Of a stretch of DNA of 64,000 bases, positions 1,156-25,027 are shown in pieces. The translations under genes and the position numbers were made by a program. Numbering within the stretch: the first letter of the stretch is position 1; each line of letters starts with the position of its first letter. The notes beneath the pieces were generated by a model. The model was not told the origin of the DNA and did no database searches. It saw nothing but the letters and a program-made list of their open reading frames with translations. Where the stretch lies: the NCBI GenBank assembly GCA_051294905.1, contig CM119371.1, positions 11,410,001 to 11,474,000 on the forward strand, written 5' to 3'. This DNA is from Botryllus schlosseri. Its lineage: Eukaryota.

Positions 1156-2425
1156 CTTCTCGCGATATTTTATTGCATTCAGCCATCGGATATCTTCAAT
1201 GCTGAGGACAATCCTATCAACAGAAGACAACGTTACTTCTCCAATGACTCTCCCGTCAGCAATCTTCGCTGCTTCGATCCAATTTGCAACACCAATTATT
1301 CCGTGCTGAAAATGCCAAGCAGAATATCAAATACTGTCAATTTGGGAAATTTAATTTAGTGTAACCTTTTTTATTTTTGGCACAACAATGCAACGCGATA
1401 CGGTAAATGATACATCTTGAAACGTTCGTCGCCACAAATCGACGTCGAACGAATCGCAATCAACTTCGATCCATAGATTTAACACCTGGTAATGTAGAAC
1501 CAATCGGTCTTTCATATGTCGTGAACGCGGTGAATGTGTCAGTTGACATTGTACAGAGATCACATACGAAATCCGAATCACAAATCACTGGTTTGTTACA
1601 GCTCAAATATGAAAATAGATTCACCTTCTGGCGATATTTTATTGCATTCAGTAATTGGATATCTTCAATCTGCAGGACGATCGAATCGACCCAAGACAGA
1701 GTTACTTCCTCGATGGATCCTACTTTTGCGATGATTGATGCTTCGATCCATTTAGCTACGTTTATTCGTCCATGCTAATGTGCAATGTATACGATATAGT
1801 AACGTTACATTACAGGGAATTTAATTCAACATTACCTCTGGTATTACAGGCGAAACAATGCAGCGCGAAACGGAAAATGAAATATCTTGAAATGTTCGTC
1901 GCCACAAATCGACGTCGAACGAATCCAAATCAACTTCGATCCATAGATTTAACACCTTTTAATGTAGAACCAATCGGTCTTTCACATGTCGTAAACGCGG
2001 TGAATGTGTAAGATACCATTATACAGAGATGGAATACAAAATTGAAATCACAAATCACTGGTTTGTTACTGCTCAAATATGAAAATAGATTCACCTTCTC
2101 GCGATATTTTATTGTATTGAGTAATCGGATATCTTCAATCCGCAGGACGATCGATTCGACCCAAGAGAGAGTTACTTCCTCGACGGATCCTACTTCTGCG
2201 ATCTTTGCTGCTTCGATCCATTTAGTTACGTTTATTCGTCCATGCTAATGTGCAATGTATACGATATAGTAACGTTACATTACAGGGAATTTAAATCAAC
2301 ATTACCTCTGGTATTACCGGCGAAATAAAGCAGCGATTGACTTTGAATGTCAAGTTTCCAAATGTTTCTCGCCATGAATCTGCGTCGTACGAATCGAACG
2401 AAATCTTCATCCAAAGGTTTGATAT
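1156..2425 (-). CDS. Repeat modules 3-5: three A exons (120 nt) and three B exons (150 nt) in 470-bp tandem units
   Basis: A is e.g. VLNLWIEVDxDSFDVDLWRRTFQD..; B is HGRINVxKWIEAxxIAxVGSxEEVTLSWVxSIVLxIEDIxLLNxIKYRxK. All six exons are open, AG/GT-bounded and phase 0. Confidence 0.85.
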
Positions 2426-5400
2426 CTGAAAACCGTTGCATCATTCATCGTATAATTTGCCTTCCTTATACTCAGGGCAGAAGCAACATTTCGTCACCCC
2501 CTCCCATATTATAGCAATTATACGAAAAAGTTTTTTTTATGGACCATATAAAGTACCAGGTGGGCTCATTTCCGCTCGAGACGCCGTCGAGTACAGACGT
2601 CTTGTTTTGCTCCTACATTAAGTAATCTTAGTTGGCAAGTCAAATACTTATCTGCATATAAGACCAACATTTAATGGATAACGTAACAAATCCCAAGTTT
2701 CTGCGGTCAAGGATCCAAGAAACCAGGTTGCCAATATAAGGCAGGGGTTGCCAACTTTTTCGGCCAAAGGGTCACTCGCAATTGACGAGCCAATGCGCAA
2801 GCCACTAACCGGATCAAGCGCGGAAATTTTTCAAAGTTTAAGGGTCAATAACAATGTTCCTTCTAATTTTTCACGATTCTGCGCAAACACGTTAACTCAC
2901 TGCGCAGGCCCTTGGAAAATAGTGCGCAACCAGGTCCCCCCATAAGGTGATAAATCGAACGTCTGGGGGGCGAAGTCATTCCCAGAAAATAATGCGCTAT
3001 TGAAATGATATCAGTATCGCTCACGCCGACGAGACCATACTAAAAGAAAAGATTTTTCGTTAGGCGCACGTGGTTGCAAAGTCTCATTTCTTCACGGAGC
3101 GCAATATTTACCTTTGCGGGCCGCACTTGTACCTCAGTGTCAGACTTCAGTGATAACACTATATGCCCCTGGCAATGTTCCCTATAATTTTTCACGAGTT
3201 TGCGCGCCTGTGTGGTCCCTTGGACAACAGTGGGCAACGACTTTAAAAACATCACTTCGGATTTTTTGTGCGCAACTTATATTTTCTGTGCGCAGAGACC
3301 GCTTCAGCACTGCGCTTTTGCGTACGTGCGTAGCTTAGAGGGAACATTGGTCAATAATATTATAACTTGAGTATACTGCTTGTCTACTGTATATCGCTGG
3401 GCTAGCAGTTAGCAAGGACAGGAGTAGGCCTATTCGGCGCGTGGACATATCGATATCGAATAAAGCTTCTGCCATCACGCATCAATCATTTTGAGCCTAG
3501 GTTTCATCGTTGACGGTATTTCTGCGAGCGCAAATGCTAGGTTGCGTGTTGGATGACACTTTGTCTCGCAATTGCGAATATAGTTAGAGTCAGTCTGGTA
3601 CATTAGGCGTTCTTTCATATTCAGGAGCGGTAACAATAGAAAAAGCAAGAAATCGAGTGACAACATATTGCGCGAAGCGTGAAAAATTTATTACTTTAGA
3701 TAAGTCTACCGCAAATTATTCCACTTTATTGAAATGTACGAAGATCCACCGAAAATGTGACTGGCCCATGGATCTGCCAAAACATCGGAACTGATATTTT
3801 AGTCATCAACATCCCAAGATTGGTGTGGCCAGATAGCGCAGTGGTATAATTCGCGGCTGCGGTTCAAGTCCCGCCGAGTTCGACTTCAGAATTCCTATAC
3901 CTAAGTGTTGGAGGTTTATATAGGCTCCTCCTCGCCACCTTATCCGCGTAAGCGATGTCTTACAAAAAGTCTAGAAGTGGGCCGTGTTATAAGTCGGCAG
4001 TTACGGAATAAAAATTGAGAATATCAGCCTCGTGTGAATGACCAATTGACCATAGTAGTCGACAAACACCATGAATACCTCAAAAACAAAACAAACATCC
4101 AAGTGTTTCGGCCTTGCAAATTCACAATCTGGGTAATCCATTTTGATAATAGAAACTAATTTTGAAAATTACTCGGCAGGCCACTCAAAACCCACTCGCG
4201 GGCAACGGGTTGGCCTCTCCTGCAGTAGGGCATGCACTATATAACCATTTCCTTTGTGCTGACGTTTTGATGCTTCTTTGGGTGACATTGAGCAATTAAA
4301 TTGAATTCTGATAGGAACTTTCTCGCGTCACCTACTTATAAGACCAATGACCATCAGCCAGACTGATGACTCAATATTTCTGCACCCTGTATAAAGTGGT
4401 CACCCTACGATTTGAGGGGGGTTTCTGGGCGAGACGTCAAGGGGTCCCCTAGAAGTATGCAATCGTAGATTATGGAGCTCCGCTCCCAAACCTCCCTTTC
4501 GCATCTAGTATTACCAACATACGCACTTAATTCTAATCAGAGGTGGTCAAGGTATTCTAGAAAGCTACTCTAGTAGAAGTAGAAGTAGCGACGAAAAAAT
4601 CTACTCAAGTAAGAGTAGAAGTACTTATTCCAGAAGCGACCTAAAACTACTTGAAGTAAAAGTAGAATTGACTGACTTTAAATCTACTCAAGTAGGTAAG
4701 TAGTTTTGATACAGTCTCAATTCGTTGGCATGGACTGTCAAAAGCTGCAAATTGAGCTATGCGGAAGGTGCAGAGAGCTTGATTCGTATTGATGCATCAC
4801 AGAATGTATCAATTTGCGACAGAATAAGCATTCTTTCGTGTCATGGGATGAAAATTATAGTATTGATATGAAAATGCGATGCCAACCCTTTGTTTACTAG
4901 AAGAACCCGTTTTAGAGAATATCATGGCATGGCGCCTTACCCCATATTATAAGACCCAAAGCTTAGGCGAAGAGCAATACTGAGAAGTTGTATCGGATAC
5001 GGCTGCAACAGTTTGCGCGATTAGTAGGCCTATACGTTAATAACAAATATTGTGGATCGTGAAATTTATATTAAGTGTTGCTTTATTTTCGGAAAATAGA
5101 GGCATACTACACTTGCTTTTATGCTTCAACATGTATGTTCTGCAGACAAAAGAACTGAAAGTAATTAGAACTCAAAGTATGATACTCGGAATTTAAAGTG
5201 AAATACAAATACCACTTCTAAACGACGGAAAAATATTTCATATCTTTTGTCCATAAAGCTTCAAAGGTGATCTGCTAAAACAGGTGTAAAGTTTAAAAAA
5301 AGCCCGATTTTCCAGATTAGCAGGACACGACATGGGCTGCTAGATTACGATATGATAGGTAATTGCTAGATTGCGAAACGGTAGTTTCAAAGGTTATGGG

Positions 5401-8400
5401 GGCCAGATTTACTGTGATTGAATAATTGATATGGGCGACAATGCGGTGTGAGCGGAGCGAAGCAATCCGCTATCTAAATTATATTCAATGATAATTTTGT
5501 GAATTAACACATTTGTGACTCCATAACTAATTTGCGCGGACCGCAACAAAATTTTGGGACTTTATTTGACTTTTATTAATATTAAATGTTTGCACTCCGT
5601 AAAAACAGCCCCGAAATTCCGCAGGCTATCTTTCGTTTTGGGGGATTAAACTACTTCTACTTGACAAACTGAAAATAGCGAAAAGTAAGTAAGTAGATCA
5701 AAAAATATTACGAAGTAGAAGTAGTGAAAACCAGATATACTTGAGTAAGTACCAGAAGTAGAGGAAAACTACTTGAGAACTTCCAAAAAGTAGAAGTACT
5801 TCGTTACCGACCACCTCTGTATTTAGGGTTACCATATGTCCTCATTTAGGAGGATTTGTCCCACTCTTTCAAGAAATCGGATATGTCCTCCGATGACGCC
5901 TAAGTAATGAAATATTTGTAGTGTAGTTTAGCTGGTTGGGTCGAACAAATGAGAAACCATGCATCGAGATATTCTTGGGTACTTATATAATTACAATTTA
6001 CTATTTCGGTCGATTCAATGGGTGATCTAATCGAAGTCATAACAAGGTCTGAAAAAATTGATTTGGTCGCAGAGCTAATCAAATATACCGTCCCACAAAA
6101 ATTCAGTCCTATGATTCTTCGAATTCCTCTTATTTCATTGATTTGAAATGACACAGAATGGTCCGAATATATGGATAATTCTTCCACGTTGGCGATTTTA
6201 ACAGTGTCTGCTACGTCGGCCCATGATTCGAGATGAATTATCTTCGTCTGAATCAAAGAAGATTTAAAGTTTAGAATACCTTACTTCGAGTTCACAGCCA
6301 CAATACCTCTTCAACTTCGGGAAGTTTAACATAACAATGATCAACACCGATCGAAATCCGTTGGAATGTACTTTCCCAAAGTTCTTTGTCGAATGATACC
6401 TCGTCAGATCTTATCCATAGTTCTTCGATCTAACATAATTTGAAATCATTAGTTACCACATTGATTGCAAAAGATGTGGAAATCCAAAACGATAACGTTG
6501 CCGTTCTTCCAAATAATATTGTAACAAAGTGCCAGCCCATTGATATTACCTTGGGTGTGAATATTTAATACTGACTTGGGAATATTGCTAACTGTTTGGA
6601 TATCTGTAGAGTATGCATGAATATACTTTTCTTTAATTTTACAAGTAGTCAATACCAGAGTTGGATCAATTGTAATTTGTAATTGTAATTGAATGTAATT
6701 AATTACATTTTTCAATGTAATTGTAATGTAATTGTAATTGCAGCATTTTTATTTTGTGTAATTGTAATTGTAATTGTAATTTGACAAAAATTTTGCTCAA
6801 TTACAATTTAAATTACATTAAATTGCTATTGAGACCTGACAAGCACAGCATAAAATAATTGACTTATAATGCATTCTCTTTAAATGTCGACAAGGAATTT
6901 GGTGGATCCATTGGCGGAAGCCGTTGACTGCGCCCTTGCGGGCGAAGTTTTATTTTTATTTTTACCGCTATGCTGGCCTCGGCTGCCATTGTATACAATT
7001 TTTAGATTACTAACCAACGGATGGATTCGCAACACGTGACTCACGATTGAATACGCCGAGAAGCGAAGTGCTGAGCCGGCTAAAAGCAGGAGAATTGATA
7101 GTCCCATAGCTGGCGATCCAAGCGTCGAAATTTGATATGTATGGTCCTAATCGAAAGCTAGTGTCGCACTGATTCCGCAATAAAAGTATATTTCCAGGAA
7201 ATGGTACCATCCCAAAATAGTCGTGAAAGTCTGGGAATCGGCATTGTTCTGAACAATCGCTGGGCGTAATTGGTAATTGTTGTGGTCATGCTGCTGCAGC
7301 GCTCTCACTTTTCAGAACAGTCGGCCTTAAACGGCTATTTTGGAGCAGTTACATCGCCCTGACGAGATTTTATTTTGTATTTTCGGAATTAGTACATCAA
7401 TAGCTTACGATAAAGACCAAATGCATCAAATTTGGACGCTTGGATCGCCAGCTCTAGGACTACAAAGTTGGCTGCTTTTAGCCGGCTCTGCAGTACGTTT
7501 GTCGGTGCATTCATCCGTGACTCACATCTTGCGCATCTATCCGTGGATTGGCAATCTACAATACGATTTCAGATCACGATGCTGCATCGTTATTTCGTCT
7601 GGCTAGCTAACCAGACCACTGGATATTATATAACGTCTTATCTGACAAAGCACGGTTTTGTTTTTACTCCTCATCCTAATTCCTACGTCCCTCGATAAAA
7701 ATAATATTATTTCTTTAATTATATACTATATACGCAAATCCAACACATGAATATATTATAATACTTTTTCAACGACATACTGCACCCTATCCTTAATCCT
7801 GACCCATAGGAAATTAGGTAAATAACATTTTACATTTCCAATTACGTGAGCCATAATTACCGAGCATACAAAACACGCTTATATTACGTCACAATGTCAT
7901 CTTACATAGCATACTATGTACGCACATAAACGCATTTATTACTACACAATCTTGAATTGTTGTTAAATACGACGCTACGGTTGTCAAGGAGCACGGTTGA
8001 ATTTATAATTATTCAATTACATGTTCAACAGCAGCAATTGTAATTGTAATTGTAATGTAATTGAAGCATGCAAGGAGTAATTGTAATTTTAATTGTAATT
8101 TGATATTTTTAGCTTGGAGTAATTGTAATTGTAATGTAATTGAAACATTCATGAAAGTAATTGTAATTGTAATTGTAATTGAACTGAAATAATGTAATTG
8201 ATCCAACTCTGGTCAATACATACTCTTGTCAAACTCAAATCGAACTTGGCAAGTTCTTCAACTTCTTTAATGTCCAATCGAAGGCATTTCAAGTTACCAA
8301 TATCGATTTGAGAAACAGTCTCTTCCGTAGCTTTTAGTAGATCGAAAACAACATCTTCGAATTTCTAAACAATATATGGGTGTAGGTACAGAGATGGCAA

Positions 8401-11400
8401 ACTAATTGAGCATTCGAAATCAGAATATTGTTCTTTACCCGTTCGATGCGAGGTAAGTCCATGAGTAAAGTAGTAACTTCCATGTTTTTAAAAACTTCTT
8501 GCCAAGAATGCATGTTTGACCAGCTCGTATTCTTTCTCATATCAAATCTGTCGATCTTAGAAAGAAGACAACCTTCAACCTCCAAATTAGAAAAATGGTT
8601 GATAACCTACTTTGTGATAAAATCACTAGGCAGTTTTGCTTCATAACTGCTAAAAGTTGGGGACTCACATAAACGGAATAGACGTCTGAGATATAATATT
8701 CTAGTGTGTAAACTCCATTCAATTGCCAAATTGCCAATAGCCTACTGATAACAACATGTTGTCGTTTAGAGATGTTTTGTTGAGGTTTTGGAAAAAAGTT
8801 GTTTGCAAAAATTCATTTTCTCCAGTGATGTATAACCGTTATTACAGAATATCTTCAAGATGAGCTGCTAGATAGAAATGGCTAGGCTGGACGTTTTATG
8901 TTTATTTGAAATCTGTTTCCAAATATTGGTGCCATATATGTTGCGATCATACCCAATGATGAGTATTCTGATCGTCTGCAATATATGCAAGAAATACTTA
9001 GTAAAAGTAAAACGCGATTATATCTACTAGAAACACCATGTATAAATTGATACTATTGCTACGATTATTGATGGTCAAGTCAAAAGTTTACCTTGATATG
9101 CCGTCTTTTCGTCTCGGAGGCCAGAACGCCTAGCAAATAGTCGTCAATATTGCAATTGTTGAACGATAATGATTTCACTCTTCCGAGATTTCCAATCACC
9201 GAGCACAACGTATTCACCACTACTGGCGTCAGGGGGTAATTCGAGAAGTCAAGATCTTGTGCGCAACTTTCTAGTATTTCGAAGGCCGCTGCTTCTTTCA
9301 AAGATGTGAAAATATCCAATTTTTGTGCAGGAGTTATGTCTTGTTTTAGTTGAAACTTCAAATTTTCCATAAGATATTCCGCTTTTAGTGGTAAATCATC
9401 TGTTTTAATGTATATAAAATTATGATAATCGGCAGAACCGCTCCAATGGCGTGGTGATAGAGAAGGACTTTTGAAGACAAATGTTTGCCGTCACTAGAGA
9501 GCATTGTAAAACAGTTCTATGAATTTATGTGGACTTGTGGAGTGTATGTTTCCAACTTCCTAATAACTATTCCGAACGAAAAACAAATCTTATGCCCATT
9601 GTTTAGTGATAGGTCAGACAACCAAGATGGAACAATAATTGCACCGCTGGCCTTGATGACTGCCGAATCCGGGCCAGTGTGTGAGCGAGCGAAAATCATT
9701 GCCAACCAGTAGGGTGCCCAGTCAATACCGAGAAAAAACCCGTACCGAGAATGCCACTACCAAGAATGGAAATGACCGAGAACGGACACAACCGAGAACG
9801 GACACCACCGACAATGTACACCACCGAAAATGCACACTACCGAGAATGAACACCACCGAGAACGGTCATTACCGAGAATGAACACCACCAAGAATAGACA
9901 CAACCGAGAATGGACACCACCGAGAATAGACATTACCGAGAATGGACACCACCGATAACGGACATTACCGAAAATGCATACCACCGAGAATGGTCATTAC
10001 CGATAATGGACACAACTGAGAACGGACATTACCGAGAATGGCCAATGCCGAGAATCTAACTTACTGAGACGGACGTTGTCGAACAGTGTTGGGAAGACTC
10101 GAGTCAACCTTATCGAATGACTTGACTTGACTCGAGTGACTTTGCAAAAATGAGTTGACTTGACTTGACTCGGCTCTTAAGAAATGTGAATTAACTCGTG
10201 ACTCGGAGCAAAATTTACGAGTCAATTTCAAGTCATCAAGTAAACGGCGCCGATTAAATCTCTGCATCTTGTTTATGTTATTCGCGATGGCGCTATGCCG
10301 GTGTGACTTGTGAGAGAAATATCTTATTCACTGATTGTACCTTTCACTGATCCCCCTTGTTACATCACAAATGAATTGACCGAAAACGAAGTGATGACAT
10401 AGCTTTCAATACAACATCCATTGTAGCAGTATATTTATTAAACTCGAAGACTTTTCGGGTGCCTCTTTTCAAGAGTTATCGGCACACTAAAGGGATTTAA
10501 ACAGATTTAAAAGCAAAACCAAAAAGGCAAAGTATGACGGAACAATGAAAATCACAGACCATGAAATTCGCATTGTACCAATGGCAACAATAACAAACTA
10601 TGAAGTATACGGACATACGGTAAACGGTACTATAGTAGCAGCACAATTTGTAAATAAACAATTACACGCACGGAACAACACGCACTAATGAGAAATTTGT
10701 AGGTTAAAGAGGAAATCTTTTTGTCTGCATAAAATAGGTTTGCTCAACTGAATAATAGTAGACTCCAACACTTTTAAATGAAACACAGACCTACCACGCG
10801 AAATGACAGTGAACATATTGTCATCATAGTGCTGTGCACAGGCAAGGTTTTCACTCAGATGCTGACCAATAGACACTTACGTGACCTTTGACACGAACCA
10901 ATCAGGCTGCAGCGGGATGTAAACAAAGAACAAGCCCGGGCAAGCTTACTATGAGCTCTTATGGGAAAAGGTTGAAAAATGAAGGTTTTAAGCAAGATTA
11001 CGTTGCATTGGGGATGACTGGCTTTAATGAATAGTAATAGCGTAGAACTAGTATGTGGTTGCAGCTTTTAATCTAGGATGAACATGAATGGTGGCAAGTA
11101 CGCACCAGCGTGCTGTGTTCAAATGCACGGGTTTTTGACAACTTTTCTGATTAAGCGACGATTGTTGTATACTATACTATAGGATTGTGGCAATGCATAT
11201 TTTGACGATTTCATAGGCTCCAGGTCTCGAGCAAAATTTTCAAGCATATCTCATGTTCAGAAATATATATACTATAAAATATAGCTGCTGCCACACATCA
11301 CAATTTTTGTGTATTGAATATGAAACTTGAAAGCTATGGAGATTCTATCGAATTTATGGATTTGAGTGGAACAGCATCTTCTTCTAACACCGCGGAGAAA

Positions 11401-14400
11401 GCTACGAAGTATTTCATGGAGCGCTATGCACCAGTGTTGGGATGACTCGAGTCATGACTTGACTCGAGTCAGACTCGAGTCAACTTTTTCGTATGACTTG
11501 ACTTGACTCGAGTCACTTTGCAAAAATGACTTGACTTGACTTGACTCGGTCCTTCAAAAATGTGGATTGACTCGTGACTCGGAGCAAAATTTACGAGTCA
11601 ATTTCAAGTCATCATGCAAACGATGTCGACTAAATCAATTTATTTTGTGCATGTTCGGATTATTCACGATACGCCGTTGTCACTTGTGAGAGCAACCAGT
11701 CATTCACTGATTGTATGTTTCACTGATTCTACATTATTACATCACAAATACACTGACCACAAACGAAATGAGCACAGCTTGCGTTTTCGTAGTAGCAGAT
11801 CAATTTAATAGCAATGTATCGCTGTTTATTGGACGGCTTTTTCCTTACATTGCACAACTTTTCCAACCCTCTTGTATGATTTAAATCGAACAAATATAGT
11901 TTATGCGTTTATATTCTCACGGATGTGTATAGATGGCTAGTGTACTATCAATTTCCTTCAACTTCTCGAGGCTTCGTATTCGATACTCTATTTTGGCTGA
12001 TAATAAGGGAATGTAGCATGTAGCTCAGAGTTGTCATACTCAACTGACGTCGCGGGCCGGATTCAAATATTCAGATCACTATCGGGCCGCACCAGTCAAA
12101 TGATTCCAAAATATTACTAACTCTTAACTCAATATATGCACTTTTTCGCATTCTCTGAATTGGGTGTCACTGTCAGCGATTTTCTCCTGACGATGACTAG
12201 AAATCACAACTCCGCTGTCGGGTGGTTATAATGTGGCCTAAGAACAGACTAGAAATGTGCAATCTTGAAGGAATATTTATTAGTAGTATTTCATACCACA
12301 AATTCGAGAAATGTGTTGGATAAAATCAACCTATACTCAGAATTGCTTCGCGCGGGACCGAATGAAATTATTTGGCGGGTCGTATGTTTGACACCCCTGA
12401 TGTAGCTATATACAGTTACTGGCGTATTTTGTTAGCAGTTCTACGCGTGCGTGAGCGATACAACGCATTTTTGCATGTATATTTAACTTTATATTCGTTA
12501 TTTGATTCAAGATATGGACCAATTGATCTCTCTTTTACACAGCTAGTAAAATATAATGAATTTCAATGATCACTCATACTTCGAAAATCCAATTTGACTT
12601 GAATTGTGACTTGACTCGTGACTTGACTTGACTTGACTTGACTCGAGTCACCACCAAAAAACGAGTGACTTGACTTGACTCGAATCACCTTTGAAAATCG
12701 ATTGACTTGACTTGACTCGAGTCAAAATGTGCAATGACTCGAGATGACTCGTGACTCGAAGGTAGTGACTTGATCCCAACACTGCTATGCACACGATTTA
12801 GGGATAAAGATTGAGGAGACAATCCACTCTTTTTAGAAGCAATATTCTAGTGAACAGCCAATGTTATGGCAACTTGCGGAAAAGTGAGATAACACACTCA
12901 ATGGAAATACACGTTCTCGGAAAATCCATTATTGATTCGTCTTGCACTTGTAAGACAGGGTAAGTAAGGAAAAAGACATTTTTTCAGAGACTTCTTCAAT
13001 AGATATTTTAACCATGATTTATTTTCATATTAGGTTCTGATATATGCTCTCATGCATATGCATTGATTAAGACAATCCAGCACCTGAAGCTAAAAGGACT
13101 ACATTGTGATTTGCATCAGCATCAGTGAGCTCCATCGTGATTGACAAGCAATCTCTCCACTGTACTCGCAACCGATCAACTCCTGCCACAAGGTAGATTT
13201 TGGTGTATCTGGTGTTTTCAGTTTTATAACATTCCATCAAACACAAATGATCCTAGAACATTTTCATCTGGAGAATTGTTCATTCAACAAATTGGGCATC
13301 TGAATGAGCTTCAATAATGCACACCACTGGAATATCTAGACATGCACTGTTGGTACAGACTGACCATGGCACCGCGCAATTACGATCCGTAGCATGCTAT
13401 TAGGCATTACGATATTGACAATGGAACTGAATTTGCACAATTGCCGAATATGTTGCGTCATTCATTTTTAATTTTCAATGTTGAATTAGAGTATGCAATT
13501 AGTCCATATATATTTGGTTAGTTGTGATACACAATGCTGCATAGTATGACACCAGACAAAATTTTATACTCCTTGATTCTTCCGATCAGCTGTTCAATAT
13601 GAATACGTTCTCTCGCCATCTTTCTTGTTGTGGAACAGTCTGGCTCAGGCATTTGAAGGAGTGTAAATCACGTGCAGGAATATTTAAATCTAGATTCAAT
13701 TTCTTGATTTCAGACTCAATGGTGAATCCCTTTTCTGCCATGATAGCATTGCCTGGCTCACCATAGCTGAACTCCATCATTTTCTTACATTTCTTGTCGA
13801 ATCCACATATTTAACTAATATTTCGATCTTAAATGCTCCCTGTAAATAGTTCCTGCACAAAAGTAAGTGTACCACAATCCATCAATCCTTTCAAAGTTGT
13901 ATGTGATTTATTGACAGTCAATAATCATTGTAGATTTGAGAAATCATGAATGAATGCAAATGGTGCATTTTTAAGAACCACTTATCTACATGGCCAAAAC
14001 GCGATTTAATGAAGCAGTTACATATGGCTGACCCAATAGTTAAATACTATGCTTACAGCAATACTATAAATTTGACGTCAGTAGGATAAGTCGGGCAATT
14101 CAGAAAGAATTTAATGTAGTCTAGCATAACATTTCTGCTTCTCCGCATCTTTTGACATTATCATGCTCCTCTGAGAACTGAACTTCACTAGCAATAATTG
14201 TCCGCCAATTTGTAATTTTCCTGGACAAGTTTACTGTTTTGTGCTTCTATACTTCTTCCAGAAATTTGATTTTCTTGCGTTTTATCCATCGACTTCCTCT
14301 TTCTGCAGCTTCATAAAAGATATCCATCAAGCCTGCACAAAATATATAATATGTTTATTTTACAGAGCAATACTGCTGTGCAGGCACCTATCAAGGCGTA

Positions 14401-17400
14401 CTCGTCGACTCGTACAACGTATCACCGCTACCAATTTCAACTATTCGTCTCATTATTGAATATATTGTTTTCAACAATTTCAATACATTACACACCATCA
14501 AGCAACAAAACTGGAGTGGAATAAAATGAGACACACACCAAGTCGATTGTGGCATCAAGTGTGACTGCATTTCAGATTGGACTCATTTTGAAACACAGAA
14601 TTGTTTCATCTAGATCAGTGGTTCCCAACCTTTTTGACCTATCGCCCCCTTTTCAAGGTCAATACCAATCATCGCCCCCCAAATTTTGTGTACCGAAAAT
14701 TGGGCATACAAACCTGTAATCACCGGCGGGTTGACTAAAAAAAGGGTCAAATTTTCGGCTCGATGTCTAATTTGACACACTTTTGTAACTAAATTTCCGT
14801 GGGTTGACTAAAAAAAAATAAAAAAAATAAAATGTCAGCCGTTTTGACGCGTCATCGCCCCCCCGAATCGCCCCCTTCGCTATTTTCGCCCCCTTTGTCC
14901 ATTTTCGCCCCCTTCGTCATTTTCGCCCCCCTAGAACGCCAAATCGCCCATGTTGGGAACCACTGATCTAGATTCTAGATTATGTCACGATTCAATATTT
15001 TTGGTACAATAATAGATGTCATTTTCTTAATAAAATGAGAATTCAGATGACTACAAGGAAGTCCACATGCCTTTATCCAGATTTTACATTCTTCCATGCA
15101 TGTCATTGGCTCTGGGAAAGGTAAAAGCGCACACCAGGAACGGTCTGGGTAGCCATCTCCATGTTACGCAGGCTATTAGCACAGTATTTATCCTGATAGA
15201 TACAATACACGAGCTAGAACAAAAAATGACGATTTCAGCCGGGAACAGATCATGTTGCCTAACATATATCATATTAATATGATCATTGAATATGCAGACA
15301 AGTGTCCAGTGTAACAGTAATTTGCTAGATAATGATACAGACTGTAGACTACTATATACAAATGTCGATTCCATAAATAGAACGCATATAACGCCACATA
15401 ATGGATACCACACATATCCTGACTCAATATTCCTCTAATACATTCTATTCGCTACGACAATCCTATAGTATACGACTAAGGATAATACAGCAATAGTTGC
15501 TTCATCCGAAAAGTTGTCAGAAATTCATTCATTTGGACATACCATGCTGATGCGTGCTTGCCATCCTTCATGCTTATTGTAGGTTATAACACTGCATATA
15601 CATACTAGCTCTACGTTATTACCATTCACCAAAGCCAGCTATTCCCAATTCAATGTAATTTTGCTAAAAACCTATATTTTTCAACCCTTTTCCATAAGAG
15701 CTCATAGTAAGCTTGCCCGGGCTTGTTCTTTGTTTACATCCTACTGCAACCTGATTGGTTCGTGTCAAAGGTCACGTAAGTGTCTATTGACGAAGCATAT
15801 GCTTGGTAATCATCATAGCAGTCTGTTTTTTCAGCCAAGTTGCACTGACGTGCGAGCTCCGTGCGATTATTTGCGCATGTTTTGACCGAATCAATTTTGG
15901 GATATGCTGCTTAATACGCTCAAACAATCTTTGAGATGTACGTCCTACATACCTACTATCACAGTGGCACTTGTATTGGTAAACAACATTACTTGCATCA
16001 AAGGCAGGAAGTACATCTTTACGAGAGTTTGGTAACAAGGGTTTCGTCGTGTACACTACAAGCGTGTTAACGTATGTGTGTCCGTATACTTCATAGTTTG
16101 TTATTGTTGCCATTGGAACAATGCGAATTTCATGGTCTGTGATTTTGATTGTTGCGTCATACTTTGCCTTTTCGGTTTTGCTTTTAAATCTGTTTAAATC
16201 CCTTTAGTGTGCCGATAACTCTTGAAAAGAGTCACCCGAAAAGTCTTCGAGTTTAATAAATATACTGCTACAATGGATGTTGTATTGAGAGCTATATTCA
16301 AGTTCTGTACCACAAACCAGCTATTGAAGTGATGACAGCTCACGTTTATGTACTAGCAGTAGAATAATCTCATAGCAACGCATCTCTGTTTCTTAGACGG
16401 CTCAGTGCTTACATCGTGCAATGCTCATCTTAAACAACCCTCCTACATGATTTGAATCGAACAAATATAGTTTATGCTTTTATATTATCAATGATGTGTT
16501 GATGGGTAGTGTATTATACCATATCAATTTGTTTCAACTTTTCGACGCTTCGTATTCGATCCTGTATTTTAGCTCACGTATTTTATTAGCAGCCAGCTCT
16601 ACGTCTGCGTGAGCGATACAACGCCTTTTTTGACTTTCTACTCGTTTTCTTATTCAAGATATATGACCAATCAATCTGTCTTTATCTAGCAAAATGTAAT
16701 GGCTTTGAATCCTCACTCATACTTCATAAAATGTTCAATGACTCGAGATAACTCGTGACTCGAAGTTAGTGACTTGATCCCATCACTGTGTCGAAATATT
16801 AATGCCTGAGAATTGACACCGAAAGTGGCAAGGCCGAGGTGCACCTACACACGATCTGAACATAGGCATAACATGCCTTCGTTGCATAAATAGATACATG
16901 CATGTATAGCTGAATACATTGTTGATGTGTCGCTTTTTAAATACCAATTAACCTATTTTCACGCGATTCCTCGGGGTAAAATCCCATATGCGATTTGCCA
17001 TAGTAGAAGCCATTGTGCGATTCGGGATAGTAAAGGCCCGTATGCGATTTGCCATAGTAGAAAACCATCTACATTTCCCCCACAAGCAATAGGGTGGTTC
17101 TTCGTTAATAATTTCTCGACCACAAGCCCAATCGAGATGCTGTTGCAGGCCTGTGCAAAGTGCGGCCCGCGGAGCGATTCTATGCCGCCCATCAAAGGTT
17201 GCTTGAAATTTAAAATATAAAACCTACTTTTTAACGTTGCTGCGTGGACTAAAACCATAGGAAGTATAAACTGAACCGGAAATTCGTTTACTATTAAGCC
17301 TGTTCATTAACATACCGTGATTACGCAGCCTATACGTAGCTCACCTAATCCAGATTCAAAGTAAAGTCAATGTACCAAATTATACCATTAGAATTAAAGC

Positions 17401-20400
17401 CACAATAAGTCACCAAACCTTCTTTGTTGCCATTGTCACATTACGCATTACAAGTTCTGTGTTTCAAATTGTTACATGATGTGTTTCCAAATCCATAATT
17501 CGTAAAACAAGTGAATCAGTGCTCATCATTTCTATGAATATATCACCACCCACAAATGATGTCAAAAAAGAAAGTCGGAAGTTGAAATTAAAAGATGGTT
17601 AATAACTGCAACCTTGGCTAAACGACGAGGCTATTTCGGCAAGCTGAACAGTGCACACGTCTCGGAAACCAGCTACCAAGACAATAAGCTATATATTATC
17701 CTCAGGACCGTAACTCACGCACCCCAAACCCTCCAATTAGATGGCGAGCTCGACGGGCGCCAAAAATTATTTCATGAATGATCATAAATTATTGGATATT
17801 TTTTTTGAAAATTTATGCAACTTCATTCAATTTTTTCTGGCGCTAGGCGCGATTTAGAGGTAAATTGTTTTTAGAATTGGACATTTCGGCGTTAGAAGGC
17901 ACTGTAATTGCAACTGCTGATCAAATTAACTAAGTAAAGGGAAAAAACGCTCGACAGCGAGAAAACCTTGGCCGAAAAGGACTGCCCTTACGTTGACCGA
18001 AAACCACGAAGTCCAATTGTCCATAGGCAATATTTGCCGGTGAAGAAATACCAATCGGGAATCGGGTGCTTTTTTTAGATTGGTACTCTTTTGTGATTTC
18101 AATATCTTTTCTCGTAGCAGACGGGAGGTCACGAAATAACAACATGTAACAAAGTAATTATACCAACGGGACCTCGCGAATATTTCCAAGACAGTACCTC
18201 ACTCAGCTCCAGCGGTAAAACTAAGTAGGCCACTACGTGGGTTGAGAGAGGTTAAAAAATATTGCAATATATATGCAATGACCAATATTATTAATCAATT
18301 GAATCATGAAACATGATAAAAATTCTGCGCTTCTCGCGATTAGGGCATTACCCTTGCCAATTAGTGTACTGTATACAAGACATCACGTGCATCGTGCATC
18401 TTGATGGGGGCTGATCTTGGGGTGAAGCCCCCAGGAGCTTGGTTTAGAACTCTATGGAGGGGGCAAGACCAACGTTTGGGGGGATGACGACGGGTTGTTT
18501 CCGCCATTCCAAATACATTTTAATGTATTGATAGAAAAACGCGGATAGGGGTTTAAAGAGACTTTAAAATGTATCATGTTTAACATAGTTTCAAAATATT
18601 ACGGCAAACAAATATTTTTTTGGGTAATTAATAGGGCCATTTTTATATAACCTTAAAAAATCCATAATATGACTTTATTTTTCGGAAAATATGACTTTAT
18701 ATGACTTTATGTGAAAATCGTGTATTTTTACATGCGAACAACGTCACTCACGGAACTAAGGAGTAAAGCAATCGCAACATAACACATCCATTTTTATTTG
18801 CAGCCATTGTCGTAGTATAGTTTCATGTAATGCGGAATGTTAGAGTCTTTGAAGTTACGATTTGGACGTAAAATGACTTTAGTAAGGAAAATGAGCGCTC
18901 CACAGACGCTGATGTGGGTTGACACCTCTGTAGTTTTGCATAAAGCGATGGTGAAATGTTTCGTCTTTGTAGCTCCATAATTTTTTTCACATCGTTTTTG
19001 TCCATTTGCTTCTTATGTAATTTTTGAGCTCAAGCGGATCTTTTCCGAAATCAAGGGCATTTAGATCAGCATGGGCGTGTACGTAGAGTCGTAAGCTATA
19101 CCTTTCCATTACAACATCACATCAGGTTGACGGTGTACGAGAGAGAGAGAGAGAGATATGCACCATCGAGATGCTATGGCGACGGAGTTGCGATACGGCC
19201 CCATGAGGTCATCTAGTCTGCGCCCCCGTTTTTTTTTCTCCTCCATGCTATCCGTGATTGCTGAGCGCCTAGCAGGATAGCTGCGGATACCATTTTTCGA
19301 GTCTTTGGTATGACCCGACCGGGGATCGAACCCACGACCTACCGCTCGATAAGCCGGACACTATCTCGCTCGTAGGCTATAATTTTCCATTTTCAGTATT
19401 AAGTTTGAAATATTGTTATATTGGAGGCAAATTGACTGAATAGTCAACTTTGGATAGTTGACTGAATTTTTGATGCTCTTTACAATAACTTCACCTTCCT
19501 ACGTCTCGGCATAATATTGAGCAGCATTCGACCAGCTACCCCAACGAGTAACTGCCTTAGTTTCTTAGTGCTTGATTGCTTCACCCCTTAAATTGTTACT
19601 TTTTATTTAAACTATACTAAAAATATGACTTTATAACTTTTTATGACCTAACCAGCAAAATATGACTTTATATGACTTTATAACTTTCTTAATATACCCC
19701 ATAGGGATGCGGTTTTCGCGTTAAAATTGATTTCACGACTTACTGATGCATAGAAAAAAATATGACTTTATTGACTTTAAATGGCCCTAGTAATTAACCG
19801 TCACTTTGTCATTCCCCAATATCAACACATCCACTGAGCACAAATTCGTGTAAATCACTGCTCCCAATTGAGAAATAAAATCAATACGCTTGATATTCTA
19901 GAATTTCTGACTTGGCCCGCCAACATATTTCTGCTTCTCATTTGGCCGCGGAGAAAAATAATTGCTCACCCCTGTGCTATTGATACCGTCGCGCTCGTCT
20001 TAACGCGCCGCTTACGCCGATTTACGATACGACCCGATACGATTAGATGTGGTGTCGGTGTCGGCGTTCAAAAAAACGCGAAATTTCGACCTATTTTCAA
20101 TGGTTGCCAGACTCAGTGCACATTTCGAAAACGCTATTCTCAGAGTTCTGCAACGCTTCCTTACGGAGATATGAGTAACCGGGGTATAGAATCCGTTTCA
20201 CTGGTCCCTGTATCACCGTTCGGGTACCGTCATATGCGGCTTGAAGAGACGCGTCTGGTAAAATCGGATTTATCTGGATCCGGCAAGCGTATCGCAATAT
20301 CTCAACTGGAGCATGAGTGCGTGGGCATTGCATGGTTCTTATATCAAGAAGCGCATGGTGAACAATTGTGATGTAGACACCATTGCCAGAATGAAGCAAC

Positions 20401-22794
20401 ACTGTTTGTCACCAGCAGCGTGGGCCTACACACAACTTCAATGTTGTCAGCTAACAACTGCTACTACAGGCTACTTAGTAGGGACAGACACTTTCTACTA
20501 GAGAACGTAGGAAAGTATCTTTAGTTGTAGTGCAATTCTTTTTTATTTCACCCATAATGCGTAATGTAACTACTGGAATTCTTCATTGTGCCAGATTTCG
20601 GTAAAATGAAGTTTTTCCATGTAAAAATTTGTCAGTTTTTGAGGCAAAAAAGGTGTTTTTTTCAGGTTAAACTACTTTGTAAGGACAGACACTTTCAACT
20701 AGAAATCAAGATATGTAGTACGATTCTAACATTATGTGGGTAAACACCTAATTTGCATACGTTAGATCAAATTTGGACGAAACTAAGATTTTTAGGGTCA
20801 AACAATGTCAAGATTTTGATTTTTTAGGTCAAAATCTTTCGTTTTTTAGATAAGAAAAAACGCCGTAGTGATAGCTCTTCAGTTTTCATACATTCCAGCA
20901 CTTAATGTAGGCCCTACAAGTTTGAGGGGAATTATACGCTGAGTAGTATCAGTAATAGAATGTTGCAATTTTACACTTGACTATGAGCCGTCAGCACTTT
21001 ACTATCAGTGAAATCGTGTCGAAATTTACTCATCACAGAGACGATCTATAAAGGTCTATGACCAGCAGAAGGCAAGATATATCCTTGTCTCACAGGTATT
21101 CATCCATCTGTTGACTCTAGTCTGCAAGAATTCTCTTTCCCTGTTTTTAGAAGCGACCTTTGGCGGCTATTTTAGCATTCATATACAGAAATTGACTATA
21201 ACTATTCATGGAAACAAACAACAACTGTCTAATATATTTTTGTGCTATATTCGGAGGTCAATCAGAGCCGCTAAAAGTCTAGCTTGGAGCCACATGCGGC
21301 TCTGACAGCCGCGGTTGGGAATCACTGGTTTAGCTCATTCAGCCACATCAACATCTTTTAAGTCCAAAAAATTGTACTGACCTTTCTTGAGAATTTGAGC
21401 GATCATATTTGTTCTCACGCTCTCATTTTTCAGAATACCAGCCGTGAAATTGCGAACAACGGCCCAGTAGGGTTTGCAGAATTCACAATCCACAATTCGC
21501 TTGAAATCATCCAGTCTCATTTCCACCACGAAAAATGCCGCTAACACTTCTTGAAGAGTTTGATGACTGAAAAAATATCTATACATTCCAGCAAGTATTT
21601 TCTGGCCAAGAATCATCAGTCCCGGAATTTTGATGATAATATCACTGATATCGCTGTATTTAAGGCTATAGTTGGATAGATCTTCATTGGTGAATGTGAC
21701 CTTCTGGTTCATGGTACCGTTGAATGCCATTACCTTCAACTTGTTGATGACATCGAATACTTCAATGGCGTCGTTGAGGTTTCTTGTATTCTCACATTCC
21801 AATAAAATTTGTATTATGGCAACCATCACCCCGGAAGCGCAATTAGGGGGGCTCGATGAAGCCTGTTTTCTTGTTATCATGTAAAATACCAGAAACAATG
21901 GTGTCAGACACATGTAGTGCATAGCTGGGTTGGATAACTTCATTTCATGCCAATCCTCTTTTGAATGACGTCCCATCAATTCGCAATACATTTTCTCTGC
22001 TTCATCTTCACTGAATCCTACCAAGGCCGCTATAAACTTAGGTCGCATCTCTTTAGTCAGGCCGGCTACTGAATGTTCTCTAGATGATATGATGATAGGA
22101 ACGTTAGGTAGCAGATTCCCTGCCAGAATGTTACCAAATATCGTAGGCGTGTTTGAAACTTCCCATGGCTCAATTTTTCTGTCGCATATTGGATCCCATG
22201 TGGCTTGATCCAATCCATCGAAGAACATAATAATTTTGATTGCCCCGTCAATTATAGCCTTCAAACCATATGCTAGTTCATGTACTGACAACTTAGTTAC
22301 GATCGGACTGAATATAACATTAGCTAATGTAATACTCTCCTGGTTTGGAATATCTCTGATATTCATGTGCATTACGACATGATATTGTGTAAATGTAGTT
22401 TCATTTCGGAACACTTTAACAAATTTCTTCCATGTAGAACGTTTTTGACTTTGAAGGTTATTTGCAATGATCAACTCCTTTGCTAATCTTTTCATCATGA
22501 CGGTCTTGCCACTTCCCGGTTGTCCTATAATAGCGGACGGACCCGCGCGATTTTCTTGGATGCGCTGTAGACAAGCTTTGTAATCTATAAAACTTCCACT
22601 TTTCGGTTTGCAGTGAGCGCTGAATCCTTCTTGTGGCAAATATTCGCCTTTGTATAATTCGAATCCTGTTTTCAATTGGGGATAAAATTCCACGTCTGGT
22701 TCTGATAAAGCTTCATACGATTCCAAAACTTGACCCTGCACATTATTCCACGAGAGATGCTTGATTTTCTCCGTAAATGCAGCGAGATATTTGC
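1156..22794 (-). CDS. Spliced NLR-like (NACHT + LRR + tandem ~90-aa modules) gene, incomplete model: 22794-21382, 9399-9092, 8555-8439, 8364-8224, 6429-6307, 6247-6089, 2425-2306, 2244-2095, 1955-1836, 1774-1625, 1485-1366, 1305-1156
   Basis: All listed exons are open and bounded by AG/GT. Phases chain without conflict (1-1, 1-0, then all 0-0). Downstream exons fall into two alternating homologous classes. Confidence 0.8.
2852..3349. mobile_element. hAT-type MITE
   Basis: TIR caatgttccttctaa/ttagagggaacattg; TSD gtcaataa; a second left end lies internally at 3173. Confidence 0.85.
3820..4095 (+). mobile_element. tRNA-derived SINE
   Basis: A-box-like tagcgcagtgg, B-box ggttcaagtcc, (CAAA)-rich tail, flanking aacatcc(c)aag duplication. 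Confidence 0.65.
4538..5819. mobile_element. hAT-type non-autonomous element with AAGTAG subterminal repeats
   Basis: TIR cagaggtggtc/gaccacctctg; right-end copy at ~31020-31308. Confidence 0.8.
6089..6429 (-). CDS. Repeat module 2: exon A 6429-6307 (41 aa) + exon B 6247-6089 (53 aa)
   Basis: ttag|IEELWIRSDEVSFDKELWESTFQRI..EVEE|gtattg and ttcag|TKIIHLESWADVADTVKIANVEEL..CGT|gtatat; clearly homologous to modules 3-5. Confidence 0.8.
6656..8211. mobile_element. hAT-type non-autonomous element with (TAATTG)n subterminal arrays, inserted 12 nt into an NLR intron
   Basis: TIR cagagttggatcaatt; perfect TSD gtcaatac; internal inverted repeat ~7010-7210 / 7380-7560. Confidence 0.92.
8224..8555 (-). 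CDS. Repeat module 1: exon A 8555-8439 (39 aa) + exon B 8364-8224 (47 aa)
   Basis: IDRFDMRKNTSWSNMHSWQEVFKN..LPRIER|gtaaag and tttag|KFEDVVFDLLKATEE..LSLTR|gtatgt; both phase 0. Confidence 0.7.
8600..8975 (-). pseudogene. Decayed A/B module (pseudo-exons) within the NLR repeat array
   Basis: ttgcag| is followed by 41 codons resembling the A exons (TIRILIIGYDRNIYGTNIWKQ..), with TAG at codon 36 and AAG|atattc where gt is expected. A frameshifted B-like stretch follows (LAIWQLNGVYTLEYYISDV..). Confidence 0.45.
9092..9399 (-). CDS. HD2/first leucine-rich repeat exon of the NLR-like gene
   Basis: Acceptor aaacag|AT joins the NACHT donor in phase 1 (..KK-D-DLPLKAEYLMEN..). LRR-like LDFSNYPLT and LSFNNCNID motifs. 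Donor AAG|gtaaac. Confidence 0.85.
11432..12784. mobile_element. hAT-type MITE (GACTT/GACTC-repeat family)
   Basis: TIR cagtgttgggat; perfect TSD ctatgcac. Confidence 0.92.
12026..12399. mobile_element. hAT-type MITE nested in 11432-12784
   Basis: cagagttgtca / tgacacccctg ends; perfect TSD atgtagct. Confidence 0.85.
14616..14965. mobile_element. Charlie-like hAT MITE
   Basis: TIR cagtggttcccaac; TSD atctagat (NTCTAGAN type); TCGCCCCC subterminal repeats. Confidence 0.92.
17702..18190. repeat. Dispersed repeat family, also at ~27600-28170 (inverted) and ~46500-47060
   Basis: Shared blocks such as accccaaaccc, aaggactgcc and aagaaataccaat occur in three copies. Confidence 0.7.
18632..19789 (-). 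mobile_element. Internally deleted hAT transposon
   Basis: TIR tagggccattt; TSD gtaattaa; remnants VTRWGSWSNAAQYY and QPTSASVERSFSLLK; ATGACTTT subterminal repeats. Confidence 0.88.
19139..19370 (-). mobile_element. tRNA-derived SINE
   Basis: B-box gggttcgatccc followed by ggtcgggtcataccaaagac..aaaaatggta core; (CT)n tail. Confidence 0.7.
20300..20860 (+). mobile_element. Fragment of the hAT family at 55206-56067
   Basis: Inverted similarity to 55300-55790, including the DRHFL..ENVGK remnant. Confidence 0.7.
21382..22794 (-). CDS. NACHT NTPase exon (NBD-HD1-WHD) of NLR-like protein
   Basis: Walker A GQPGSGKT, Walker B IIMFFDGLD, sensor-1 IIISSR, LVGFS, CLTPLF and winged-helix FSHQTLQEVLAA motifs. 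Acceptor tttag|GC at 22794, donor AAAG|gtcagt at 21382. Length 1413 nt, symmetric phase 1. Confidence 0.93.
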
Positions 22795-22995
22795 CTAAAC
22801 ATTAACATATTTTTGCGAATCACACAGATCGAAATAAAGTTTTAAGCATTGAGCTTGCGGTCAGGTCTTAAGGTGGGATTAAAAAAGGTTAGCCTAATGG
22901 CGGCGGAGGGGCGGGGCTAAGACAAGTGAGTCACTTGCCTAAGTCAGTTTGTAAAGGACGATTTGATCCCGTTATAAAAGTTGATATATGTCGCC

Positions 22996-25027
22996 TAGGT
23001 TTGTCCAAAATTTGGAAAATCTCAAATAGTCTCCGTGATTGTGTCTCATTCTATAGATTATTGATAAAAAAAAAACAATTAGCCCGAAAGAAGCTTACAG
23101 GAAAGCCGTTAAGATTTCGGACAAAGCGTTTGAAAGTAGCTGCTCAAGAATGGGCGTGCCACCGACCATAGAACGGCGAGAAGACTAGTAATCAAATAAC
23201 CACGGCTCTTGATTGGCTAATCGGCTATGCTTCAATGATCACGGCTGCAGCAGCTTGCTGGTTAGGTTTTCAAGTAGTCTGCTACCTTCGGGGATTCTGA
23301 GTCCGCATTGTTAGTAGTTTGCAGAGATGAGCGGATTTGGAATTTCTATGTCCTAATCCAATCAAAATCCGAAACTTCAAATCCTAATACAAAACCTAAT
23401 CCAGAACTTTTGTATATTCAACTCCATGTCCAATCCTAATCCGATTCCAATTATTAATTCAGAAAAAATGCTAATTTATGCAAGGAAATTCTCTTTCAAA
23501 ACCAACAGTCCTCTTGATTTAAGATAGCTTGGCATAGGGCTGTACCTCACATGCTCAATTGCTCATCGACACCGAGTATACCATAGTGTAGTGTTCCATA
23601 AGTACATTATTAACTGATATGACTAAAGTTTGTCGCCATTCGCCACACGTCATATCAATCTCCTAGAAAATCGGTAAATCCATCCTAATCCGTTCAGAAA
23701 AAAATCTCTAATCCTAATCCAATCCAAATCCGACATTATTTAACACAAATCCTGTTTTTACAAATCCTAATCCTAATCCATGCTCATATGTCGTAGTTTG
23801 GCAGGGGATGATTTAAGTTTAATTCAGGACATGTTGAGTTACGAAATACATGATGAACAAACAACACCTGCTTCACAAAAGCTTTTACAGCATGACTGAT
23901 GTATTGTGAAGGAAACGGCTGAAGGCTACATGTCGTGTTTTCATCGAGAAAAAGCAAAGGCGCTTCTGCAAGTGTTGAGCGAATTCTCCGTTTCAGTACG
24001 GATCCACCATCAGTGAATACAAATATATAAAGCTTAACAATGACACTATACTTTGTGTTATCTTATTGGGCTGAAGCTGTAGTATATAGGTGACGTTTTG
24101 AATGCTCTGTGGATCGGCGGAATCAGCCGGTTATGCTTGGCACTTATCAGATGCTTACAGCAAATTGAATGCACTTGTTGCGTTGTTAAAGTCCTTAATG
24201 ACAGCGCAGAAAAGAGGTGTAAAGAAAAGCACAGACTATGCTGCATATAGTATCCAGCACAGTTTGGATATCATATCCAGCATAGCCTGTGCTTACCTTA
24301 CACCTCTTTTCTGCAGCATCATTAAGGACTTTGACAACTCTTATAAGTGAATTCAATTTGCTGTAAGTATAACTGCCCAGCATAACCGGCCGATTCAGTC
24401 GATCCCTAGAACCTTCAAAACTTCAACTATATACTACAACTTGGGTCCAATAAGATCACATATAGTATAGTGTTATAGTCAAGCTTTATATTTGTATTCA
24501 CTGATGATGGATCCTTCTTAAACGGGGAATTCGTTCACCACTTGCATAAGCGCCTTGGCTTTTCCGTGATGAAAACACGGCATGTAGGCTACAGCTGCTT
24601 ACTTCACAATAAAGCAGTCATGCTGTAAAAGGTTTTGTGAGACACTGCTGTTTGTTCATCGTGTATTTCATACCTCAACATGTTCTGAATTACTCTTAAA
24701 TCATCATCTGCGAACCTACCAACAATGAGCTTGTAGAACCCCGGCCGGTAGCAGAATGCTTGGACACTTAATCAGCAAGCTGTTGCAGCCGTGATCATTG
24801 AAGCATAGTCGATTAGCCAATCAAGAGCCGTGGTTATGTGATTACTAGTCTTCTAGCCGTTCTATGGTCGGTGGCACGCCCATTCTACTTTCAAACGCTT
24901 TGCCCGAAATCTTAACGGCTTTCCTGTGAGCTTCTTTCGGGCTAATTGTTGTTTTTTATCAATAATCTATAGAATGAGAAACAATCACAGGGACTTTTTA
25001 AGATTTTCCAAATTTTGGACAACCCTA
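22996..25027. mobile_element. Fold-back (palindromic) non-autonomous DNA element
   Basis: Arms ~22996-23320 + 23800-24240 are reverse-complementary to ~24280-25027; flanks tgtcgcc/tttcgcc. Confidence 0.85.
23322..23792. mobile_element. hAT-type MITE with CCTAAT/AATCC repeats, nested in the fold-back arm
   Basis: TSD gtagtttg; degenerate TIR cagagatgagc. Confidence 0.75.

Follow-up and report, generated by a model that had tools for sequence, protein, structure and literature searches.

A NACHT gene with strictly alternating short exons

We analyzed a 64,000-nucleotide stretch of the genome of the ascidian Botryllus schlosseri (C1:11410001-11474000, contig CM119371.1 of a 495-Mb assembly of 219 contigs; the whole stretch is here called the window), which carries on its minus strand a gene that, by its sequence, belongs to the type called NOD-like receptor (NLR). 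The gene consists of one long exon encoding a NACHT domain (NACHT exon), a second exon (exon 2), and an array of short exons of two kinds, A and B, which alternate strictly and form A+B pairs, here called cassettes. An earlier reading made from the letters of the window alone (the sequence-only reading) had described a NACHT exon, a leucine-rich repeat (LRR) exon, and at least five A+B pairs. This chain is real: the ends at 1156, 9092, and 22794 as well as the sizes of 39 to 41 amino acids for A and 47 to 53 amino acids for B were recovered exactly. The exons and the first intron are listed in coding order.

21382..22794, minus strand: NACHT exon, 1413 nt; acceptor gtttag/GC at 22794, donor AAAG/gtcagt at 21382; phase 1 at both ends
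9400..21381, minus strand: intron 1, 11,982 nt, with repeat-like filling
9092..9399, minus strand: exon 2, 308 nt; acceptor aaaacag/AT (phase 1), donor AAG/gtaaac (phase 0)
8439..8555, minus strand: A0, 39 amino acids, phase 0, a divergent A exon
8224..8364, minus strand: B0, 47 amino acids, AG/GT in phase 0, a divergent exon in the B position
6307..6429, minus strand: A1, 41 amino acids, phase 0
6089..6247, minus strand: B1, 53 amino acids, phase 0, separated from A1 by an intron of 59 nt
2306..2425, minus strand: A2, 40 amino acids, phase 0
2095..2244, minus strand: B2, 50 amino acids, phase 0
1836..1955, minus strand: A3, 40 amino acids, phase 0
1625..1774, minus strand: B3, 50 amino acids, phase 0
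1366..1485, minus strand: A4, 40 amino acids, phase 0
1156..1305, minus strand: B4, 50 amino acids, phase 0, open on to a TGA at 1137-1135

The open reading frame of the NACHT domain spans 21335..22801 (488 amino acids), with a Walker A motif (GQPGSGKT) and the sequence FFDGLDQ legible in frame, and the corresponding exon of an 87% identical paralogue is free of in-frame stops. All 10 A and B exons are preceded by AG and followed by GT in phase 0. The A exons measure 117 to 123 nt and the B exons 141 to 159 nt, while the A-to-B introns are 59 to 74 nt long and the B-to-A introns in the tandemly repeated part are 139 nt long. The claim that every junction of the gene is in phase 0 holds for these 10 exons but fails for the NACHT exon, which is in phase 1 at both ends, and for exon 2, which begins in phase 1 and ends in phase 0; the phase-1 donor of the former matches the phase-1 acceptor of the latter. 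Spliced from the NACHT frame to B4, the model comprises 1043 codons with zero stops, a figure obtained with a longer A0 (start at 8606) that was later dropped.

This longer A0 (56 amino acids, 8606..8439, using the upstream acceptor at 8606) was rejected after comparison with the paralogues. All four close loci examined share the acceptor of the 39-residue A0, where an AG and its pyrimidine tract immediately precede ATC GAY, and in one paralogue a stop lies eight codons upstream of this acceptor. A0 matched the A profile with an E value of 1.6e-12, A0 itself being in the training set; a small A profile did not pick it up, nor was B0 picked up by the B profile. Judged by position, size, and conservation in the paralogues, A0 and B0 are the divergent first pair of the array. 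Among 2433 open-frame pieces from both strands of the whole window, the A and B profiles matched five and four places, respectively, which is partly by construction, since A0, four further A exons, and four B exons belonged to the training sets; the sole other match in the window had an E value of 0.82.

At the 5' end, the P-loop of the NACHT exon is not preceded by a start codon, which means that one or more coding exons must lie upstream. At the 3' end, B4 reads on for six codons to the TGA, the alternative being a splice from the GT at 1155 to a distant sixth A/B pair. Because of this early TGA, and because in the closest paralogue the homologous last B exon lacks a GT donor and runs into a stop two codons on, B4 is probably the last coding exon, with the sixth pair being optional or a relic. 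The latter (C1:11403762-11403433) lies within a duplicate of the 3' end of the gene that is 87% identical over 527 nt. In the whole duplicated segment (C1:11403217-11407087), a single A/B pair is joined to a piece of the intron upstream of A2, and the segment resembles a recombinant form of the three-cassette tandem block with one cassette left.

Paralogous loci and changes in cassette number

The genome holds at least 88 relatives of the NACHT exon, a lower bound for which 88 of 200 candidates were scored, thus pointing to a large NLR repertoire in this animal. Eleven of them are 52 to 87% identical to the NACHT exon of the window gene and the remainder are at most 45% identical. The gene and these 11 paralogues quite likely form a small, lineage-specific NACHT (NLR-type) subfamily, as part of the overall explanation given below. 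The sequence-only reading had proposed a genome search with the A and B exons for paralogues; carried out with single exons over the 495 Mb, it returned 37 A-like and 22 B-like matches, every one of them downstream of a NACHT exon of this close subfamily.

We compared the window gene, six paralogous loci, and the left flank of the window; the other five loci of the subfamily are at C1:12.47 Mb, C1:13.57 Mb, C12:2.91 Mb, C12:23.21 Mb, and C9:2.2 Mb. The order NACHT exon, exon 2, A0, B0, and then alternating A and B exons was found in all seven loci. An in-frame AG and GT stood at the expected ends of 64 of the 65 profile hits in these loci, the exception being a partial B fragment, and all 30 joined A/B pairs were without a stop, A and B being always paired. 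The intron between the NACHT exon and exon 2 measures 1.0 to 2.7 kb in the six paralogues, compared to 11,982 nt in the window gene. The coding sequence is under constraint: relative to the closest paralogue (C1:11.59 Mb), the ratio of nonsynonymous to synonymous substitution rates (dN/dS) was 0.22 for the NACHT exon, 0.12 for exon 2, 0.24 for B0 (89% identical in that paralogue), and 0.36 to 0.78 for the other cassette exons, with dS values of 0.19 to 0.28 for the NACHT exon and exon 2. The A/B exons are thus part of the same gene as the NACHT exon, their assignment to a separate gene being nearly excluded by the conserved order, the matching phases, the contiguity of homologous proteins in Styela clava described below, and the coding constraint.

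The number of cassettes differs among loci. Five A/B pairs lie inside the window and a sixth 7.4 kb past its edge. Beyond A0/B0, the paralogue at 11.59 Mb has nine pairs, that at 12.33 Mb four, and that at 17.13 Mb five; five A/B pairs were seen in 16 kb sampled from the 12.47-Mb locus, and three genes on contig 12 have about three pairs each, namely, A0/B0 and two clear pairs, plus further A-type exons. The last three genes stand in tandem (C12:3107960-3190000), about 36 kb apart, with near-identical exon maps and NACHT exons 53 to 54% identical to that of the window gene, and they represent a recent local triplication. The window gene and the 11.59-Mb paralogue are collinear, but between its counterparts of B1 and A2 the paralogue carries five cassettes not present in the window gene, while the window gene has extra terminal cassettes that come from a 470-bp tandem duplication.

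1384..2335, minus strand: tandem duplication of 2.0 copies with 91% matches (Tandem Repeats Finder), its 470-nt period being made up of A, an intron of 61 nt, B, and an intron of 139 nt

This duplication is recent, and its copies are mosaic: identity amounts to 60 of 61 positions in the A-B introns, 137 of 150 between B2 and B3, 122 of 139 in the B-A introns, and 82 of 120 between A2 and A3, a pattern that unequal crossing-over or gene conversion would leave. Whole cassettes are thus gained and lost in frame, and the sequence-only reading was right in that the copy number of the array changes. It had further stated that any exon or pair can be gained or lost in frame. Since A and B always alternate together and the middle turn of the repeat is apparently split between them, it is gain or loss of the pair, not of a single exon, that would leave the repeat intact.

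Relatives of the gene and nature of the cassette

Assignment of the gene to the NLR type, as in the sequence-only reading, was borne out by the NACHT frame itself and by its nearest relatives. The frame matched the Pfam NACHT model (PF05729) with an E value of 9.3e-14 and 52 bits, against a cutoff of 26.7, while the NOD2_WH model reached 20.9 bits, below its cutoff of 23.1. The closest public proteins are uncharacterized NACHT-LRR proteins of S. clava, namely, LOC120338386 (P0010 to P0012), LOC120326636 (P0001 and P0002), and LOC144429750 (P0007), with 28 to 33% identity over 93 to 99% of the query and E values down to 3.2e-82. Their order of NACHT, winged helix, HD2, and repeats is one that the window gene is predicted to share, and exon 2 aligns directly behind their NACHT module, for example, at residues 609 to 708 of P0010 (E value, 8.7e-8). 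In P0001, NLRC4_HD2 was recognized at 33.6 bits (cutoff, 33.1), and the end of this region is where exon 2 aligns. The stretch matching exon 2 is modeled by AlphaFold in P0010 as three helices followed by strand-helix-strand-helix. By homology, exon 2 is thus predicted to encode the end of the helical domain and the first two LRR turns. The P0010 model, built with 15 sequences, shows a regular strand-helix array over residues 650 to 1155 with a predicted local distance difference test score (pLDDT) of 62 to 95, and it matches NLRP9, NLRP14, NLRP2, NOD2, NLRP3, and NLRC4 with E values of 3.5e-17 to 1e-11.

An N-terminal effector domain (CARD, PYD, Death, or BIR) was not found, since none of the 27 open-frame pieces upstream on the minus strand (23784-33382) matched Pfam at an E value of 0.01, and none of the N termini of the S. 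clava proteins matched the window. P0001 gave a weak Death-domain match (22.5 bits; cutoff, 22.6) that has no counterpart found in the window gene. According to a review, the NLRC proteins of ascidians have no N-terminal domain (PMC11508797).

The repeats of the S. clava proteins are regular LRR pairs of 55 to 58 residues recognized by Pfam LRR_6 or LRR_1, unlike the cassettes of the window gene, and the A/B cassette was not detectable in these proteins when the B profile was run against a library containing them. The B half of the cassette shows a weak profile similarity to the 58-residue units of P0010: a profile built from 30 cassettes matched P0010 at 15.1 bits, aligning positions 34 to 91, that is, the end of A and all of B, to two 58-residue units, while 20 shuffles of the target set reached at most 7.3 bits and reversed sequences 6.6. 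In the AlphaFold model, the two matched units are strand-helix-strand-helix elements within a regular LRR arm.

The alignment of 30 cassettes revealed three motifs with LRR-like spacing, which include LxxLxLxx(N/D) and xxCxV. In this alignment, as in LRRs, conserved hydrophobic positions are interleaved with the columns that vary most. We read the motifs as three turns of roughly 24, 36, and 30 residues, with IxxLWIxx(D/N)xxSFDxxxWxxxF in turn a, FxVxxCxV followed by W..AA..A in turn b, and VxEVxLxS....LxIxDIxxLN in turn c. AlphaFold, run on exon A3 with 28 aligned A exons, predicted a strand at residues 3 to 8, a helix at 15 to 22, and a strand at 31 to 36, with a mean pLDDT of 78. From these alignments and models, it seems reasonably likely, at about two chances in three, that the cassette represents three irregular LRR-like turns, the middle one of which is split by the A/B intron. 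The cassette falls outside the Ribonuclease-inhibitor-like LRR class with its alternating 28- and 29-residue LxxLxLxx(N/C)xL units (LRR_6), as its unit is about 90 residues long and gives no LRR_6 match.

RNA reads, competing explanations, and known systems

None of the listed RNA data sets contained the NACHT exon. Four bulk RNA runs from the same species (X3, X5, X6, and X7; 6 to 13% of each) were aligned to positions 1450 to 21449 of the window. In all four runs, the depth was 0 in the bins covering 1450-2783 (A2 to B3), at most 0.19 over 8787-9453 (exon 2), and at most 0.1 over 20793-21449 (end of the NACHT exon), and none of the 15 joints listed, out of 27, was a predicted junction. Reads within intron 1 were mostly partial repeat matches, a fraction of 0.90 to 0.99 of the aligned reads running on unlike the window. 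This result says nothing for or against expression elsewhere.

Intron 1 contains two copies of one repeat family in opposite orientations (10100-11100 and 15500-16800), with similar open-frame pieces at 10491-10688 (plus strand) and 15784-16203 (minus strand) and at 10855-11067 (minus strand) and 15583-15885 (plus strand); the pieces 10491-10688 and 15784-16203 had no Pfam match. In run X7, 10868 is joined to 15786 by 29 reads that presumably stem from copies at other genomic sites. The highest RNA depth of the aligned region, about 54 to 56 per strand class in X5, was seen at 18792-19458, where reads break off at 19229 and 19359 in loose ends of poly-T or adapter-like sequence. One frame of this segment reads GFDPRSGH and resembles a tRNA-derived repeat; ARAGORN and Rfam reported nothing there, and neither found an Rfam family or a tRNA in positions 1 to 30000 of the window. 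Just upstream of exon 2, at 9743-10055, stands a 16/32-nt tandem repeat (ACCGAGAATGGACACC) of 9.8 to 18.7 copies, and microsatellites of the AATTGT type, with about 20 copies each, are found at 6668-6781 and 8036-8181 in the introns flanking the first cassettes. Run X3 showed a 57-nt skip at 7952-8010 with 14 replaced letters, suggesting that these reads come from a variant copy.

Overall, we consider it likely that the window holds one gene of an NLR subfamily, whose protein runs from a NACHT ATPase through winged-helix and helical domains and a pair of ordinary LRR turns into an array of LRR-like cassettes of about 90 residues that grows and shrinks by whole cassettes. The array would continue the LRR solenoid begun in exon 2, and its length would change by tandem duplication, unequal crossing-over, and deletion. 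If the gene is expressed, the repeat arm may, as in NLRs of solved structure, lie folded back against the NACHT module, keep it inactive, and bind the trigger; an immune role is suggested by family membership.

A number of results weigh against this explanation, and several of those on the cassette speak for a new repeat fold, unrelated to LRRs, that would have replaced the LRR arm in this subfamily, much as WD40, TPR, or ankyrin repeats stand in for LRRs in other NLR-like proteins. No sequence method recognized an LRR in the cassette. None of 28 A exons and none of 24 B exons matched a Pfam LRR model at a threshold of E 10, which agrees with the sequence-only reading that the unit lies outside the canonical LRR families, and exon 2 had no Pfam LRR match at E 1. 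The A and B profiles retrieved no LRR from solved chains, their best hits (E values of 1.3 and 0.52) being unrelated proteins. In a profile-profile comparison with 79 LRR-pair units of S. clava, the cassette scored 13.2, a value reached by 3 of 60 column shuffles; hhalign found nothing between the cassette and the repeats of P0001, and no internal repeat emerged as significant when the cassette profile was compared to itself (P = 0.43). Among longer proteins, a word-based search started from 24 B exons gave no match at E 10, and a profile of these exons, run against 1,835,955,588 proteins, gave six hits, namely, three unrelated repetitive proteins and three B-like fragments of 52 to 88 amino acids from assembled contigs that read through into an intron. 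Two of these fragments (P0019 and P0020) are 70 and 50% identical to the nearest exon of this genome and must therefore stem from another organism or a divergent haplotype, so that related exons exist in at least one further such source. In a protein atlas, the neighbors were of mixed kind and weak, FapA reaching 0.89 for B and FNIP and LRR 0.75 to 0.77 for A, all below the 0.9 line of the tool. Against a new fold stand the position of the array directly behind the two ordinary LRR turns of exon 2, the LRR-like spacing of its motifs together with the strand-helix-strand model of exon A, and the resemblance of the B half to an LRR-like unit of S. clava above the shuffle controls, and we regard an unrelated fold as improbable. 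Equally doubtful is a broader proposal, in which the cassette would be a previously undescribed repeat class, either a strongly remodeled three-turn LRR supermotif or a new solenoid, that arose in one ascidian lineage and provides a dozen NLR genes with their variable recognition arm, its number and sequence differing between paralogues, and perhaps individuals, through unequal crossing-over. If true, it would amount to a compact, germline-encoded diversity system in an invertebrate chordate.

The remaining points against the favored explanation of one gene with an LRR-like array concern the window copy itself, which may be silent or decaying, open only through its recent duplication, and without a protein product, a rather unlikely reading that is compatible with the favored explanation for the family as a whole. 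Intron 1 has swollen to 12 kb of repeats; neither an upstream coding exon nor a start codon was found within 7 kb, nor did the 27 upstream pieces give one by Pfam; and two blocks conserved with a paralogue (25026-25273 and 25608-25957) contain stops in every frame. In addition, the 3' end is partly duplicated 7 kb away, and the dN/dS of cassettes rises to 0.77 to 0.80 in some comparisons. However, all 12 exons are open with intact splice sites, and the low dN/dS of the NACHT exon and exon 2 at the dS observed leaves little room for long neutral decay. The same long intron, together with the lack of a linking transcript in the four RNA runs, is what speaks for a separate A/B gene downstream of a NACHT-only gene, a reading to which we assign hardly any weight: the order is the same in seven of seven loci, six of which have the short intron, the phases match, the S. 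clava homologues are contiguous across the junction, and A/B-like exons are found nowhere else in the genome than downstream of subfamily NACHT exons. That the A/B modules belong to the same gene, a point on which the sequence-only reading had staked itself, is what the seven loci show. Alternative splicing of the phase-0 exons into many isoforms with different cassette sets also seems unlikely to us. Skipping of any pair would keep the frame, all cassette junctions being in phase 0, and modularity of LRR-arm exons is named as a precondition for LRR-exon skipping in human NLRP3 (PMC6642158). No predicted junction was among the listed joints of the RNA runs, though, and the middle turn would be severed if a single A or B exon were skipped, in keeping with A and B occurring strictly as pairs in 30 of 30 cassettes.

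Tunicates are the closest invertebrate relatives of vertebrates, and their NLR repertoires are poorly described. Full-text literature gave no description of such a cassette or of an NLR expansion in styelid-like ascidians, which is weak evidence since subscription papers were mostly outside the coverage. Because the cassette is invisible to Pfam, domain surveys would score such genes as NACHT only and would undercount NLRs of the receptor type. The locus offers a clean example of a repeat arm evolving by two-exon units, with the frame, the unit boundary, and the tandem duplication all legible in the DNA.

Modular LRR exons are already established in NLRs. In NLRP3, each LRR exon has a length of exactly 171 bp and codes for two LRRs, one of 28 and one of 29 residues, while its border falls within the beta strand; such "strict exonic modularity" in the LRR arms of NLRs is presented as a prerequisite of alternative splicing (Hoss et al. 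2019, PMC6642158). The arms of vertebrate NLRP and NLRC proteins and the window gene are alike in that a NACHT protein carries a repeat arm encoded by short, frame-preserving exons. They differ in the unit, uniform 171-bp exons of two LRRs in NLRP genes as opposed to two unequal exons (117 to 123 and 141 to 159 nt) per roughly 90 residues here, and in the placement of the border, which in the window gene would put the start of the A exon at the strand and the A/B intron in a putative loop of the middle turn. In brown algae, a study describes ROCO candidate immune receptors whose LRR exons are shuffled and alternatively spliced, yielding a varied repertoire (PMC11378527); these receptors belong to a different nucleoside triphosphatase family (ROC-COR) and to another kingdom. 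The window gene thus follows the same design principle as the modular LRR arms of known NLRs but with a different, so far unclassifiable and lineage-specific unit.

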